Positions 44,804 to 51,834 of a stretch of DNA of 64,000 bases are shown here, piece by piece; within the stretch, counting starts at the first letter, position 1; every line of letters starts with the position of its first letter. A model generated the notes under the pieces. That model had not been told where the DNA came from and did not search any database. It saw nothing but the letters and a program-made list of their open reading frames with translations. The DNA is taken from assembly GCF_038025025.1 (NCBI RefSeq), contig NW_027117340.1, positions 1,860,001 through 1,924,000 on the forward strand. Direction: 5' to 3'. Source of the DNA: Phyllosticta citribraziliensis. Taxonomy: Eukaryota. The translations under genes and the position numbers were made by a program.

Positions 44804-47800
44804 GGCGCTGGGTGGGCGGCGACTATGGCCGCTTTTGAGTCGAGGCACAAGGGAGGAGTGGGACTGAGGCGTGGTAGAGTGCCAATGGGCGAGATGTTGG
44901 ATGCGGCGTGGTGGAGCTCAAAGACGCGCTGAGGTTGGTTTGTCGTGATAGAGGACGCGTGAAGCGCCGGAACGAGCTCACGTGGCCAATCAAGCGCTTC
45001 ACTTTCCGGTGCCTGAAAATTGTCTGTGTTCTGCCGGGCACTTTCCATCCATCTCATCGACGAGATCTCCATCAACCAGCTCAGGCACATGTGCTAAACT
45101 CAGTCAACAGCTTACGCACGTGGCAACGCCCGCGACTCGTTTTCCCATCATGCTTCGCGAGGGCCGAAGTCGTGCCCAAAGAAGCGGCGCGAGACCTGGC
45201 AAAAGCAAGAGGACCTCGCGCGACAGGCGACGAGTCACTTCACCGCAAAGTTTCTTCTCCTGCACCATGATGCCATTACTGAGGAATCAAAAAGCATCAA
45301 AGTATCGCTGGGCGTCCTCGATTGTGCCTCGCAGGGGCATATTATGATTCCCTGGGTCTAGCTGCGGTGGTGAGGGGCAGCTTCTCGGGCACACTTGTGG
45401 TAGCAGACGAATGCTCCTTGGGCGTCACTGTAATGGCAGATGACTGCTAAACATCTGTTGATGTCGGCGCAGCACCAACAACTTACGCCTGCGACATGGC
45501 CATTGGTGTGCCAAACAGAATCCCGTCTTGATGGGAAGTAACGTCTTGTCAATGACGAAGCATACGTTGCATGCGCGCACCAACGCCGAGATCCAGTGCA
45601 TATACCGGAGTCTATCTCGGCTCTTAAGACTCCCTTTTTCGGCGTTCGCGAGCAGCAGCGATTGGATCTTGATCCGCACGCCTCGCATCGTCAACTCTGT
45701 TGCGCCCCACATTGCATACCAAGTAGATTCTGACGGGTTGCACGCCCAGTCAGACGAGCACGGAAAGCTATGCCAATGCGGTGTACGGTTGCTTTTCGAA
45801 ACTGCCCTAACCAACTCTTCCAGTCAGCAGCCTTCATCAGCACCCTCGCCATCAATCCGACATCGACAACGCGCCAGTTACGTCTAGGTAGTCAGGGCAA
45901 GACAGAAAACCACCAGGGTTGGCGAGCGACGGACCAGTATCCCTGATATCCCCCGACCCCATCATCCCAGACCCCTGTGTCAAGGCAAAGGAAATATCGC
46001 AGTTGGAGCGAGAAGAGGGTGGAGGACGGGAAATCCGGAGAGCTGCCCCGCGGCGGCTGGAGCCGGGGGTGGGCCTGCGCCGGTTGTGGAGCAAGGGCAC
46101 GACGGACGCGACGGCGATGCCCCCAGCGCCACCTGCTCGGTGCTGCTGGGTTCATGACTGATCTCGCAGCAGATGGATGGTCATGTGATGCGGGGATGCC
46201 GGGGGCCCTTGCTAGTTGGTAGATGTAGGAGAAGGGAAAGAAGACAGGAGTGGAGGAACAGTGGGTGTCGAAAGAGGTATTGCTCTAGCTCCAGGCGCAA
46301 ACGAGCGGTCAACACCACGTCAACGAAATGCAGGTTGGCAGATGGGCAGGCGCACGAAAGCGAAAGCGAGAAACTGACGACCCGGCGCACGGTACGAACA
46401 AGGCATGTACACAAAATGCATGAATGAAGAACCTCCCTATTGACACTGCAACGAGCAAACTAGAGAAGGACCACAACGCAACTGAAAGCAGAACCACGGC
46501 GACACTGGGTGGGGGTGACGATGGAGGCACGCAAATCGACATACCTGATCAACCCAGCTACCAACATCTTGATGCAACAAGCGGACCCATGACGCTCATG
46601 GCACAAGCTCAACAACCACCCGTCGCACAATCCCCTATCATACATGCTGATCGACGTCCGGGAGATGATGGCATTGCGGGGTGGATTCCGAGACGAAACG
46701 GTGCAATGTGGGAAGAGTCTTCGGGAGCGGACGATGATCCATTCTTCACTGCTGCCGAGACGAGCTAGAGAGGTAGGTTGGAGAAGTGAACGAAAGAGAT
46801 ATCAGGATAGTGCCGGAAACAATTCGACGATGGCAAATAGGAAGCAGTCGTTCGCTGCGCCAGTAGCAGACTGGGAGCATCCGTCATCTGTGCCGCAGAC
46901 GCATCAGGGGCCTCTCGTCGGCGCGCCAGGTGCCTGAGGAGCATTCGGCCGCCGCGCCGCCCTTGACCTCGATCTTTGTTTCGTCGACACTGGCAGTCAT
47001 GATGACGTGGAGAGCTCTGACTGTGTGCACGAGTAAGGTGGTATTTGTGTAGTTGTGGCTACTATCTACTATGTCTAGCCCTTGATTAATATACCATGCA
47101 TGCCTAGGTTCCACTTCTATTCACCGTATGTACAAGATTAGGGAAAGAAGTGTGTGCGGGATGGTATTATATGAAGAAATGTACAACGTTTGGTGTAGGA
47201 AGCCATCGCAAATGTAAGTGTATGCGATGGGGTTGGTGAGAAGTATTCAAGGCAACAAATTAAACAGAAGGGTGGCGAAACGCAGCAGATTAGAAATTAA
47301 CCAAGGGGTAGAGAGACATGACGCTGATACCGCTCGACGTTGCGTTGTAGGAGGACGGTGGCAGGTATTGACAAGATGGACCAAAGGCTTCTTTCTCGTC
47401 CGTCTGGCCCGCCATCCTGCGCTTCGTATGTTTGGCCCGGCCGACTATGGTAGTGCCGGGTAAAAGTGTCGAATGCTCCTTGTGTCTTACCAGCTCCGTC
47501 AGTGAGACGCCAGTGAGGGCTGAAGCAAGCTAAGCCGCAGCCAGAGCCCTTCGTGGCCAACCAACGTGGTTGAAAACGAAGGAAAGAAAAGGGCATGCTG
47601 TGTGAATGCCAATTCCAGTATTAGGGATTATGTGCTAGAGATTATGTGATGCGTGTGTTTGGGGGGGAAATGGGATAGAGAAGGGGTAGAAATGCGAGGT
47701 TTGATGCTGATGCAGATGCTCCTGGTCAGGCTATTGCCCTTCTATCGTCTACGCCGTATGCGATGCGATGTGGTGCAGATCTTATTATGCAGGGGAAATA

Positions 47801-48595
47801 AGTGACGGTGGTGTGGGTAAAGAAAGCAACACGGGTTTTGACGGAAGAAAAAAAGACGACCTTTCGCGCAGTCTCGACGAGGCCAACTCGACTACTGGAA
47901 TCAGACGCTCGTCTGTCCCAGATCGCGAAGTGCGCCCGGTTCCGTCTAGATGGGGCGGGGAGAAAGTTGACCCAGGAAGGGAGAGAAAGGGAGGGAAGGA
48001 ACCGCTCGCTCCCTTCCCGTCCGTAGCGCTGCAGGCAGGCATGGCTAGCGTCGTGGCGGCGTTGGTCCGTCGCTTCCACCAGTGCCTGCCCTCGTCCAAG
48101 GCTCAACACATTAGCAAGAGTTGTGCTTTGTGCGCAGTCAAGGAGCGTTCATCCGCTTGAACTGACAAGGAACTGATAGGGAGCATTCGAGCCCCCGGTT
48201 CGGAGAACCTCAGCATTGTGTGCCACCGATGGATGATGAAGCTGATCCCCTGCAACAATGACTCCGCACAAGGGAGAGAGACGCCAGTGTTGTTTCCGCC
48301 GTTGCAGTCGCCCTGGCTCCGCTCGCCTCACGTCGCCACCACACCAACAACCGACGCTTCGTCTTGACTCACTACCGCACTTGGCCTGTCCGCGCCCCGC
48401 CACCTGCCGCCCGGCTGCTAGGTTAGTCTCCGTCCGTTGCCCGCTGCTTTGTCGTCTTGTTTGTCATGCAACAATAACATCGATGTGGAGCCTGGCTGGT
48501 TGTCTGGCTGGATTTTGCCGAACGGGAACAGACACGGGAAAGGTACCCCTCCAGCGCCAATCCCAACAACCCGCTTATTAGAGACGGTTGCGCGA

Positions 48596-49034
48596 TCATA
48601 GATCGCCTCCCCTGGAGCCCCGGCCAATCACGCCTAGAATACCCATGGACGTCGGCAGGGCCATCGAGTCCGAGCCGGACCTTTGCACCGAATCCCTCTT
48701 TTCGTGACCCTTGACCTTGTCTGCGACCTGGTCGTTTCCCTCGCTCTTCAGGTCTGTCGTAGAGCGTGCGCCAGTACCGTTTCCGTTGGTAGCGGTCATG
48801 GCCGACGCGTTGCCGTTGCCAAGGGACATGCGGTGCAGGCTCTCGGCGAGGTCGTGTTGCGACAGGCTAGCCATGGTGATTGGTGATTGCGGAGTCGACA
48901 GGGACGTTGTCAATGCCGTGGCGGATGGAGGAAAAGGCAGCGCACAGTATCGCGCCATGGGCTGCATCGATGGCGGCGGGAACGACGGCGGCGGCGGCGG
49001 CGGTGGCGGCATTGCTGCCGCAGCCATGTACATG
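48596..49034 (-). CDS. Candidate alternative terminal exon of the NAM8-family gene (145 aa, Pro-rich/low complexity)
   Basis: Branch point GACTAAC at 49060-49054 and acceptor CAG at 49037-49035. The open frame MYMAAAAMPPPPPPPP...GGDL* is in phase with the reconstituted donor at 49858/49806. Confidence 0.55.
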
Positions 49035-49803
49035 CTGTCCCCAAAGTAAACGCGTTAGTCTCGAAGCCCTGGTGGTACGTACAACGCGCGGGAGTTTGAG
49101 CGAGCTCGGCGGGCGGAAACGACGTGGGATCAACCAGGCGGGGGAGGAGGGACGGAATCGACGACAGTCCGTACGGCACTGCACAATGATAGCACCCAAG
49201 AGCAACAGCACAGGCAAGGAGCAGCAAACAAGGCAAGCCGCATGCGAGAGCAAACACTGGTATAAAGCGCGCAATAATACACAAACGAATGCAAACCATA
49301 AGGAGAACCAATCGTTGCCGGGAAAACCATGAAACTAGCAAAGTTGCAATTTAGAGGAAAAGCAGCATGCTCTAAAAAGCATCCATCCCGGAACCAGTCG
49401 GAGCATAGGCTCGTCAGCAAAGGGGAATCGAAAAACTAGCTACAACCCGAGAAAACCTCCATGTCGTGTGGAGAAAATAATAGTGTTGTTCCCGCGAGGA
49501 CCGCAAGAAGATTAAGAGAGAGCAGCAGAAGAACCCCTGGCTAGGCCGTGTTGTACAGGATTTTCTCTAGACCTCGGTCGTGAAGAAGGGAAAGAGCAAC
49601 TTTTTGGTATTGGGGGAAAGGCATGAAAACCCGGAAAATTGACTGGAGACCGAACTTGATGATGATGAGAGTCGTGACGTGGCATGCATAAAGTGAGAAA
49701 ACCATGGACCAAGCCAACCGAGTTAAAGAGCCTTGAAAGACCTTTGAATGCACGACGTACGCGAACTCCCGCTGAACCCTCAAGAAATTGTAAGGAATTT
49801 AGC

Positions 49804-51195
49804 TTACTGTGGCAACGTCAGCAAGCCTGCATCTATGGCGGTTCACTGCTGCCATACCTTCATGGGAGCAAACCCACCGTATGGACCGGGCATGCCCATG
49901 TTGGGGTAGACCGGGGGAGGAGGGGCCGGGCGGTAGGGAGTGCCAGCGGGACCAGAGTTGTTTTGGCTGCGGCCCCAGGAAAGACGGACGCGCGAGTTGC
50001 CAATGGGGTATCCTTGCATCTGGTTGATAGCCATCTCTGCGGCATGGCGCTGCACGAATTGGACGAATCCACAACCCTTGCCCGGCGGGATCTTGACGTA
50101 AGTGATTTCACCAAAGCCTTGGAAGAAAGAGCGGAGCTCATCCTCGGTGACGTAGCCAGAAAGGCCTCCGACAAAGACGGTCGTGTTGTTGGGGTCGGTA
50201 AACTGGTTCATGGGCTGAGGAGCACCGTAGTAGCCAAGAGGCGGTGCGCCCATTCCGTACATTCCCACGGGGCCAGGACCGTGCATGCCGCCCATGGGGC
50301 CACCGGCAGCGGCTGGGCCACCGCCGCTCTTGTTCTTAGGAGTAGCGGTCGAAATGCGCATCGGGCGGTTGCCGCAGTAAACACCCTGCATCTCGTTGAG
50401 CGCGCGCTGCTGCTCACTCTCTTCGGAGAAGCGAACGAATCCGTAACCACGAGACATGCCGCTGATGGGATCCGTCATGATCTTGGCCGACTTGCACGAG
50501 GGGTACTTGTTCTGGAACAGCGAGACCAGGACGTATTCGTTGACTTCGGGGCCGAGGTCGCCGACAAAGATGGAGTACTCGGGGCCACGGTCGTCACGGC
50601 GGTCAGCGAGGCCTCCTCCGGAAGCCCAATTGAGCTTGAAGGGACGGTTCGTGTTGGGAATCATCTGTCCATTGAGGGAAAGGGCCTTGGAGGCAGCCTC
50701 GGGCGTCTGGAAGTCGACAAAGCAGTAGCCGGCATTGTTGCTACCATGGTTAGCTTTGATTGTTGAAGCAAGGGATGTTGCAACTCACCCAGAGAACTTG
50801 TCCCGGATCATCTTGACGTTGACTTGCTCGCCCATGCCAAACCAGACACTGCGGATGAAGTTTTCGTCGATCCAAGGCTCGAGTTCACCCATCCTGCCCA
50901 CGTGTTAGCCATCAATTGCGAAAATGTTGCGCGTCGACCTTGGGTGAAGCGCCAGCTTCGGACCGACGCGACCGTGTGCGCACGCGTACCAGAGGGTTGT
51001 CTTGGCCTCGCCGCCAGGGCCTGGCTGAGCGGCGTTGGGCGCGCCAACGGGCATGTTTCCACCTTGGAACTGACCAGCCGCGCTCTCGATGGGCTGACCC
51101 ATCTGAGGTTGTGGTTGACCTCCAGCGACGCCCTGCGCGTTGGAGTCGTCGGCGCCGGGCTGGCCTTGAAACGAGTTGTCGTAGGGGAAACTCAT
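49804..51195 (-). CDS. NAM8: Three-RRM RNA-binding protein of the Nam8/Ngr1/Csx1 (TRNAU1AP, RBP45/47) family
   Basis: TLWMGELEPWIDE, AGYCFVDF, FKLNWASGGG, SIFVGDLGPEV, SRGYGFVRF, DPNNTTVFVGGL, KGCGFVQF, RVRLSWGRSQ. Introns 50989-50894, 50788-50741 and 49857-49807; the last exon starts with TAA at 49806-49804. Confidence 0.9.
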
Positions 51196-51834
51196 GGTGA
51201 CCGCGCGAGGTGCTACGGTAGGTATATTCGGAAGTGTGAAAAAGTTGAAGAAGTGGCTTGGGGTTAACGTCCTAGCGTTGACGACGGTAGAAGCTAGCCG
51301 GGCAGAGGATAAGTCAGCACAGGCGCTCTGATCGCACGGCGGAGAGCCATGTGAGAAAAGCAAGAGGCACGAGCCCGCAGCCCTGATCAGGCGTGCAGAT
51401 GATTGACGCTTGGGGCAGAACTCACCTCGAGAAGAATGACTGCAGATGGCAGATGTATCGCCGAGATTGCGACAAGACGACCTGGATTGCGCGCGCAGGC
51501 AAAGCCCAAGGAAGCGGAAGCAGCAAGCCAGATGGAATTGAAGGCGACTTGACTTGGGAGGGACCGCGCGAGCGAAAGTTCAGAGTTAGGAGAACCTAGC
51601 AATGCTGAATGAAGGTCGTTTGCTCGAAGCGGCGGAAGCAGCAGAAGAGAGGTCACTCGCAAATCTGCCGAGAGATGAGAAAGAGTCAGTCAGCAGGCGG
51701 CGGCAGAAGCGAGAGTGAGTAAGCGCAAGCCAGATCACATGCGCGCGCGCGCGAGGGAGGGACTTTGTCGAGGCGGGGTTGAGCGACGGAAGGCGCGAGG
51801 TGGAAAAGATGCGGGAGAGAGGTGGAGTGGTGGA

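Follow-up and report, generated by a model that had tools for sequence, protein, structure and literature searches.

Can the removal of one short intron write the stop codon of an mRNA and, with the same letters, the donor of a further splice that would exchange the C-terminus of the protein? This question is raised by a three-RRM gene of the fungus Phyllosticta citribraziliensis, located on the minus strand of contig NW_027117340.1 (assembly GCF_038025025.1). The window, i.e. the whole stretch of DNA that was analyzed, comprises 64,000 nucleotides (nt; contig positions 1,860,001 to 1,924,000), and all coordinates below are counted from its first letter. A first-pass annotation had described the segment 48596..49858 as a candidate [D1,2] twin-intron switch in a NAM8-family gene: a first splice would create both the stop codon and a new donor, and the latter would lead to a hidden exon of 145 codons. 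The first splice takes place and yields a short protein; of this part we are as good as certain. For the reading as a whole, namely an old nested intron of the [D1,2] type, conserved among fungi, in which the splicing intermediate is used as the main mRNA and a second splice would lead to a form of 543 amino acids, we lean modestly in favor.

To our knowledge, spliceosomal twin introns (stwintrons) have so far been seen as oddities in the evolution of introns, with intermediates that are nothing more than precursors. In the accessible parts of the literature [D1,2] stwintrons of Pezizomycotina are established (Flipphi, Fekete, Karaffa; PMC9024468, PMC12403724), and excision of their internal intron is described to give a donor of the form G/URWGY (PMC9024468; the slash in such motifs marks the splice site or junction).

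The first splice and its product

Four RNA runs (X1, X6, X7 and X8) were compared as assembled contigs with window positions 48000-51700. X6 and X7 are recorded as plant metagenome RNA and both carry a close relative of the window sequence, while the long contig of X1 has zero differences from it; X1 and X8 behave as RNA since their contigs lack all introns. In each of the four runs one contig contains four joints together, namely 51293/51426, 50892/50989, 50740/50789 and 49806/49858. The last of them skips 51 nt with GT..AG borders on the minus strand and, because it was seen in all four runs, the internal intron is genuine and AAG/TAA is the sequence of the mRNA at this point. This bears out the reading ...CCC ATG AAG/GTATGG...GCTGAC...CACAG/TAAGCT with the intron at 49857-49807, and also the claim that its removal creates the stop codon (TAA at 49806-49804) and completes a frame of 398 amino acids ending in YGGFAPMK. 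The same junction contains the predicted rebuilt donor GTAAGC, composed of G49858 and 49806-49802, so that G49858 is both the last base of exon 3 and the first base of this donor.

The intermediate had been proposed to be a translatable mRNA in its own right, and in the RNA contigs the spliced intermediate is indeed an ordinary mRNA. Past the junction the contigs of all four runs are colinear with the window from 49806 onward. The X1 contig (4877 nt, mean word depth 2772) remains colinear to 48000 and beyond, so the sought intermediate with ATGAAG/TAAGCT reaching past 49035 was found in it, covering the proposed external intron in full as well as the distal frame. We take the short form to dominate in this fungus and the long form to be minor or conditional.

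Retention of the internal intron would, as previously stated and now confirmed by translation, give an end PMKVWQQ followed by a stop. Nine of 15 public models from Botryosphaeriales retain the intron in this manner (ends PMKVWQQ or VWQH), the other six ending at PMK. The models P0003, P0127, P0129, P0132, P0134, P0128, P0136 and P0137 read into the part of the intron that corresponds to 49843-49857, and intron-reading models with the ends PMKVWQQ or PMKVWQH come from Phyllosticta, Diplodia, Neofusicoccum and Lasiodiplodia. According to the RNA contigs the correct end of the PMKVWQQ models is PMK.

Orthologous genes and their two C-termini

Judged by its sequence, the gene is the Phyllosticta ortholog of a Pezizomycotina three-RRM gene of the Nam8/Ngr1/Csx1 type. 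Its exon-3 product is 99% identical to a 403-residue 'mRNA binding post-transcriptional regulator' of Phyllosticta citrichinensis, the predicted N-terminus MSFPYDNSFQ agrees with the public model P0003, and Pfam RRM_1 matches three stretches of the exon-3 fragment product (E 4.6e-41), which means three RRM domains, as in yeast Nam8 (a protein of the U1 small nuclear ribonucleoprotein, snRNP), Ngr1 and Schizosaccharomyces pombe Csx1/C23E6.01c. In a PDB search yeast Nam8 was closest (E 2.1e-76, 260.8 bits; next match 1.7e-24, 89.8 bits), a closeness measured among solved structures, with Ngr1 and Csx1 having no solved structure among the matches. The earlier label NAM8 family is fair since Nam8 is by far the closest solved relative; orthologs are named in their sources as Csx1-type regulator, NGR1 or C23E6.01c. 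As regards Nam8 versus Ngr1 we keep the combined type name, the function being a prediction from sequence.

One metagenome scan delivered 80 loci, 78 of them containing the junction; they were treated as genomic if the upstream intron sites are interrupted and as mRNA-like if these are continuous. Conservation of G/GT..AG/TAAG, which the first-pass annotation had suggested to look for, proved to be widespread. The internal-intron layout is present in 25/78 loci, in the form of a K or Q codon, GT (once GC), 48-80 nt, CTRAY and AG directly in front of a stop codon. Twenty-two of these are genomic and three mRNA-like with the intron kept. In those three (L011, L019 and L045) all upstream introns are gone and the internal one is retained; therefore a third, intron-retaining transcript form (..K-V.. 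or ..Q-V..) exists in some fungi. In 37/78 loci the stop follows immediately after a K, Q or N codon, and 31 of these 37 are mRNA-like. The mRNA-like locus L028 (AAG TAATTT) and the genomic locus L054 (AAG GTGAGT..TAG TAATTT) have 242 identical upstream bases and therefore demonstrate that a further species performs this first splice. Of 49 distinct loci 24 have GTAAGC as rebuilt hexamer, with G at +5 in 34/49 and position +7 free.

A profile of 17 conserved tails was used to search these loci for the distal exon and found it in 24. In ten of them it follows directly after AAY, without an intron; eight of the ten are genomic loci of another lineage and encode ..AMN-P[HN]AH... Because genomic loci have the distal exon directly after AAY, the long protein with Asn looks ancestral. 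Three further loci are genomic and Tuber-like, with an undivided donor AA/GTAGTT that overlaps a TAG stop and an acceptor AG/T; their tails resemble the Tuber model. The remaining 11/24 possess the internal intron, and the exon is found 501-988 nt downstream behind CTAAC, CTAAT or CTGAT and AG/T. Their nearest named relatives include Cenococcum (93%) and Lecanora (78%). Ortholog acceptors read AG/T CCN followed by TAY or CAY.

The phase of the distal exon, the conservation of which had likewise been put forward as a check, is informative: the acceptor is in phase 2 in all 11 internal-intron loci with a distal exon. Since the internal donor is in phase 0 and the acceptor in phase 2, the conserved frame is reached only from the donor that is rebuilt one base upstream. 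The two-step path predicted for these relatives rests on this phase argument. The join itself (AA+Y = Asn), as had been predicted, is carried by mRNA-like contigs of other fungi. L053 with the short end (ATG AAG TAAGC) and L047/L059 with the long one (ATG AAC CCC TAC) are identical over 242 upstream bases, therefore short and long mRNAs both occur in one organism. The nearest named relative of these three is a Pleosporales model which itself reads K-V... The Eurotiales-like mRNA L004 (nearest Thermoascus model 91%) reads AAT TAC TAG; here, as judged from the contig, the second splice turns Lys-stop into Asn-Tyr-stop and removes untranslated region (UTR). In L041, L044, L043, L050 and L069 the last base of the exon is T or A (AAT/TAA, AAA/TAAGC) and no GT donor is rebuilt. 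These lineages appear to have given up the second splice and to have kept the intron before the stop.

Annotated proteins give a corresponding picture. Among the 120 best ortholog models, classed by their C-terminal end, 61 have the K or Q residue as their very last one and 40 continue as K-V.. or Q-V.., the donor GTN being translated as valine. Thirteen have odd continuations, three were left unmatched by the pattern used, and three (P0023, P0117 and P0119 of Tuber brumale) read ..AP[ML]N-PHA[AV]HMHPP..RLE[AT]DxRGY[DNH]SV[FY].., with Lys replaced by Asn as a phase-2 join AA+Y predicts. The ab initio models P0026, P0042, P0091, P0094 and P0120 of lichen fungi reach the same tail via implausible in-frame bridges. 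Such bridges are exactly what is expected from a gene caller that is unable to model the true join. Taken together, the Phyllosticta locus very probably corresponds by orthology to a nested intron of the [D1,2] type that is conserved among fungi.

The proposed second splice in Phyllosticta

According to the favored reading the 51-nt internal intron leaves first, as the RNA contigs show, and the junction AAG/TAAGC provides the stop codon of the normal mRNA for 398 amino acids ending in PMK. As suggested by the relatives, this junction would at the same time serve as the donor G/TAAGC, whose G precedes the first donor by one base. Should transcription proceed beyond the 3' UTR, the rebuilt donor could be used together with the branch point (49060) and the acceptor (49035), and the second splice would convert Lys-stop into Asn plus a genus-specific tail of 145 amino acids (543 in total). 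This second splice would presumably compete with 3'-end formation. The ancestral state would have been a plain phase-2 intron with the donor AA/GTAGTT overlapping the stop, as kept in Tuber-like fungi; in most other Pezizomycotina a small intron would have settled between G and T of the ancestral donor.

The signals predicted for this step are in place. GACTAAC (49060-49054) and CAG (49037-49035) are present, and the phase-2 join (..CCCATGAA joined to CATGTACATGG..) gives on paper Asn followed by MYMAAAAMPPPP... up to 48596, as the first-pass annotation had proposed. An acceptor pattern derived from the orthologs (CTRAY, 5-40 nt, AG/Y NNN TAY) occurs five times in the 128 kb of both window strands, and only the site at 49034 is then followed by at least 100 open codons in the phase-2 frame.

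What stands from the [D1,2] switch as originally proposed is thus the internal intron, the first splice, the rebuilt donor and the layout in orthologs; the second splice was seen in no contig of this fungus. In none of the four runs does a contig connect exon 3 with 49034 or with an acceptor closer by. The negative is weak, since assembled contigs drop rare forms and the repeat at 48972-49015, which lies 19 nt from the acceptor, was masked in the comparison (one X8 joint there was dropped). Neither X7 nor X8 has a contig below 49257 and 49302, respectively, and over 48744-49115 X6 has only low-depth pieces (1.3-1.7 versus 59.9 for the mRNA contig). In our estimation the chances that this fungus makes a 543-residue isoform by way of the second splice are about even.

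Some further observations concern the same region. The repeat is a (CCG)n run that encodes poly-proline directly past the proposed acceptor and varies in length among Phyllosticta species; its masking hampers detection of the second junction. The contigs stop at 49302, at 49257 and, with 11 loose adapter-like letters, at 49200. A 3' end near 49200-49300 is thereby hinted at weakly at most, and we did not use this as evidence. The X1 contig extends about 2.1 kb past the stop of the distal frame (window about 46460-48596) and about 1.5 kb past 48000, over DNA without any long conserved open frame. A long UTR may account for this extension, as may read-through or a transcript that overlaps the region on either strand.

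Alternative explanations

The main rival of a nested intron in use is that the distal frame became, or always was, a separate small gene. In this case a single splice would give PMK and a 3' UTR of about 500-600 nt, GTAAGC would be an unused relic, and the distal frame would be an independent genus-specific gene with its own promoter. We regard this as possible but rather doubtful. Several facts speak for it and, at the same time, weigh against the second splice. Public annotation of P. citrichinensis, P. citricarpa and P. capitalensis lists the distal frame as a gene product of its own, a hypothetical protein of 144-151 residues beginning at the first ATG; the ATG at 49033 has A at -3. To the missing joint in the four runs comes a missing fused protein: a representative search with the tail gave a single match, the stand-alone P0123 of 146 residues, and no record fusing the RRM part to it, and a search for longer fused proteins gave 0/517 candidates at E <= 0.01. 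No relation to the conserved tail NP[HY]AAH..RLEADxRGYDSVF was detected for the distal tail, with an hhalign probability below 1%, a hidden Markov model profile score of -5.7 bits (1963 of 2000 shuffles as high) and a profile-profile score of 11.8 versus 11.45 +/- 2.55 in 200 column shuffles. When 13 conserved tails were compared with the window by tblastn, the best match listed within the region (E 0.038 at 49021-48959) was not significant. Colinear likenesses noted by eye (N-x-Y-AA..PPPP; LHRMSL/MNEMSL; RSGSDSMA/SRGHDSVF) were set aside as leads only, there being no significant similarity in any test. In some lineages, moreover, the rebuilt donor was lost by a change of the last exon base (junction ATAAGC or TTAAAT), so the second donor is dispensable in places, and an intron of 773 nt is long for a fungus. 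Nevertheless, a separate gene would have to start exactly one base past a branch point and AG, in the phase of the orthologs, at an ortholog-like distance (772 nt versus 448-907) and with the same N-x-Y start. The annotated split into two genes is the artefact expected from callers that are unable to model a [D1,2] join, Pleosporales-like relatives from the same class use the long join, and as the tails of Pleosporales-like fungi have diverged too, tail divergence is not decisive.

The distal frame could also be a chance open frame in GC-rich non-coding DNA, with only 3' UTR and intergenic sequence beyond the stop. In line with this, open frames of 146-155 codons are present over 48867-49350 on the minus strand in all three frames and on the plus strand in one, so frame length alone proves nothing and counts against the proposed exon as well; furthermore, the frame has no Pfam match and no homologs outside the genus in the representative protein search. 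On the other side the frame is open over its full length, from MYM to GDL, in four Phyllosticta species at 78-97% identity, including P. capitalensis (78%), whose alignment has six or more indel positions and no break. The GC content by codon position (0.575/0.596/0.719) has a coding-like third-position value of 0.72 versus 0.58 and 0.60, as in exon 3 (0.595/0.50/0.721), and GC rises from 0.50 in the external intron to 0.63 from the acceptor onward. Because the frame is unbroken over four species despite indels, we exclude a chance frame for practical purposes and rate it very improbable. Even less credible is a long form made in one step, either from the first donor AAG/GTATGG to 49035 (..CCCATGAAG + CATGTAC..) or by joining the rebuilt donor to an acceptor closer to it, such as TTTTAG at 49372. 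Both joins are possible on paper: the former enters, as had been foreseen, a different frame and adds 55 codons, the latter would add ..KACCFSSKLQLC and a stop. Neither joint is present in the four runs, in which all contigs are colinear across 49372, and the 55-codon frame is not the one with coding-like third positions. In the accessible part of PMC9024468 one-step removal of a [D1,2] stwintron is an occasional mis-splice leaving a frameshift.

Comparison with known splicing systems

Measured against described [D1,2] stwintrons, the Phyllosticta locus has an internal intron between nucleotides 1 and 2 of another donor (G49858 / GTATGG..GCTGAC..CACAG / TAAGC). The internal intron is excised alone, as seen in contigs colinear over 49806-49200 (X1 to 48000), and an external branch point and acceptor restore a frame, the phase-2 join opening 145 codons. 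Excision forms a canonical donor, for GTAAGC, which had been claimed as a [D1,2] donor, fits G/URWGY as given in the accessible part of PMC9024468. In the described cases, as far as the accessible texts report, and here alike the internal intron is of U2 type, and two consecutive standard reactions are expected. The same texts describe a short-lived intermediate, both steps being needed for a readable mRNA, whereas the Phyllosticta intermediate has its stop codon made by the junction and is itself the main mRNA, so that the second step would be optional and would change the C-terminus. An intron shift by one nucleotide through a stwintron was reported for a DHA1 antiporter gene (Fekete et al. 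2017; PMC5587772), and a one-base shift is likewise seen here between the Tuber-like phase-2 donor AA/GTAGTT and the phase-0 donor AAG/GT.. nested in the old one. In the accessible part of that report, however, alternative internal introns lead to identical proteins, while here the two positions lead to different proteins and one of them ends translation. The open full-text literature searched, as far as accessible, contained neither an account of this gene nor a stwintron whose intermediate has a junction-made stop and serves as main mRNA; the gene is also absent from the accessible parts of the supplements of PMC9024468 and PMC12403724 and of PMC5639578 and PMC6616335. The external intron has 773 nt here (G49858 included) and 448-988 nt in orthologs, and the layout is common to loci with nearest named relatives in Dothideomycetes, Lecanoromycetes, Leotiomycetes and Eurotiales.

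Two systems of animals are also comparable. At ratchet points of long animal introns the exon junction left by one splice restores a 5' splice site, which the next splice then uses; at the present locus, too, the first junction restores such a site. The regenerated GT of a ratchet point lies wholly downstream of the junction (AG/GTAAGT) and the frame is unchanged; here, by contrast, the G comes from the exon, the frame shifts by one base and the last codon changes. In the immunoglobulin M (IgM) heavy chain splicing versus an upstream poly(A) site decides between the secreted and the membrane form with their two C-termini. The likeness lies in a donor, placed within the last coding exon or at its end, that competes with 3'-end formation upstream of the distal exons, although IgM has no nested intron and a competition in Phyllosticta is so far presumed.

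Gene structure and a conserved element behind the stop

The features of the gene are collected in Table 1.

Table 1. Features of the three-RRM gene and its downstream region (window coordinates)
Feature	Position	Strand	Basis or remark
5' untranslated exon, at least to 51665	51426..51665	-	RNA contigs of 4 runs, joined to 51293
5' UTR intron, 132 nt	51294..51425	-	joint 51293/51426 in 4/4 runs; CT..AC on plus strand = GT..AG on minus
Coding exon 1, ATG 51195-51193	50990..51195	-	sequence reading; joined frame = 398 amino acids
Intron 1, 96 nt, phase 2	50894..50989	-	joint 50892/50989 (cut +1), 4/4 runs
Coding exon 2	50789..50893	-	sequence, RNA contigs and joined frame
Intron 2, 48 nt	50741..50788	-	joint 50740/50789, 4/4 runs
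Coding exon 3: RRM2, RRM3, Pro-rich end ..YGGFAPMK	49858..50740	-	translation, Pfam
Internal intron, 51 nt, GTATGG..GCTGAC..CACAG	49807..49857	-	joint 49806/49858 in 4/4 runs
TAAGC (TAA stop 49806-49804; with G49858 rebuilt donor GTAAGC)	49802..49806	-	sequence
GGGAGTT core of conserved non-coding element ..CAGCGGGAGTTCG..	49764..49770	-	37 nt after stop
3' UTR of short mRNA = body of proposed external intron	49035..49806	-	colinear contigs, 4/4 runs
Branch-point-like GACTAAC	49054..49060	-	sequence; ortholog counterparts CTAAC, CTAAT or CTGAT at same relative place
CAG, proposed external acceptor, phase 2 (AG/C ATG TAC)	49035..49037	-	sequence
Distal coding frame, C + 145 codons + TGA	48596..49034	-	candidate last exon or separate small gene

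In 42 of 63 loci the motif GG[AC]GTT is present no further than 130 nt past the stop; 500 shuffles gave 3.4 on average and never more than 9. In its wider form (..AGCGGGAGTT[CG]G..; window 49759-49775, minus strand; loci L002-L071) the element lies 25-67 nt past the stop codon. The first 25 nt past the rebuilt donor are pyrimidine-rich (C+T 0.68 versus 0.53-0.61 further on). An Rfam search of 48400-49900 gave no matches at E <= 1, and folding of 49700-49870 (z = -0.08) revealed no special structure.

Biological meaning

Nam8 helps the U1 snRNP to use particular 5' splice sites. It is tempting to ask whether the nested intron is a conserved self-regulating switch, in which the protein would choose between export of the short form and the second splice to the long form; at present we consider this unlikely. 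The gene's own mRNA would bear a 5' splice site that exists only after the first splice and overlaps the stop, and the protein may act via the pyrimidine-rich stretch and the conserved GGGAGTT element. In the tail the pattern L-x3-[LM]-x2-[LM]-x-[LM] resembles what we take to be the motif class of nuclear export signals, a match without statistical support; the stretch reads DLAESLHRMSL here and MNEMSL or LNEMYM in other fungi.

For annotation, the nested layout explains the three different ends found among public models of this gene family. Gene callers split or truncate such genes, and in Phyllosticta the tail is filed as a separate hypothetical protein. As the same letters write the stop codon and the new donor, one nested intron could give two proteins. 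The layout spans several classes of Pezizomycotina and is found in a gene related to a factor of 5'-splice-site selection, which makes this locus a testable case of a stwintron with a function.

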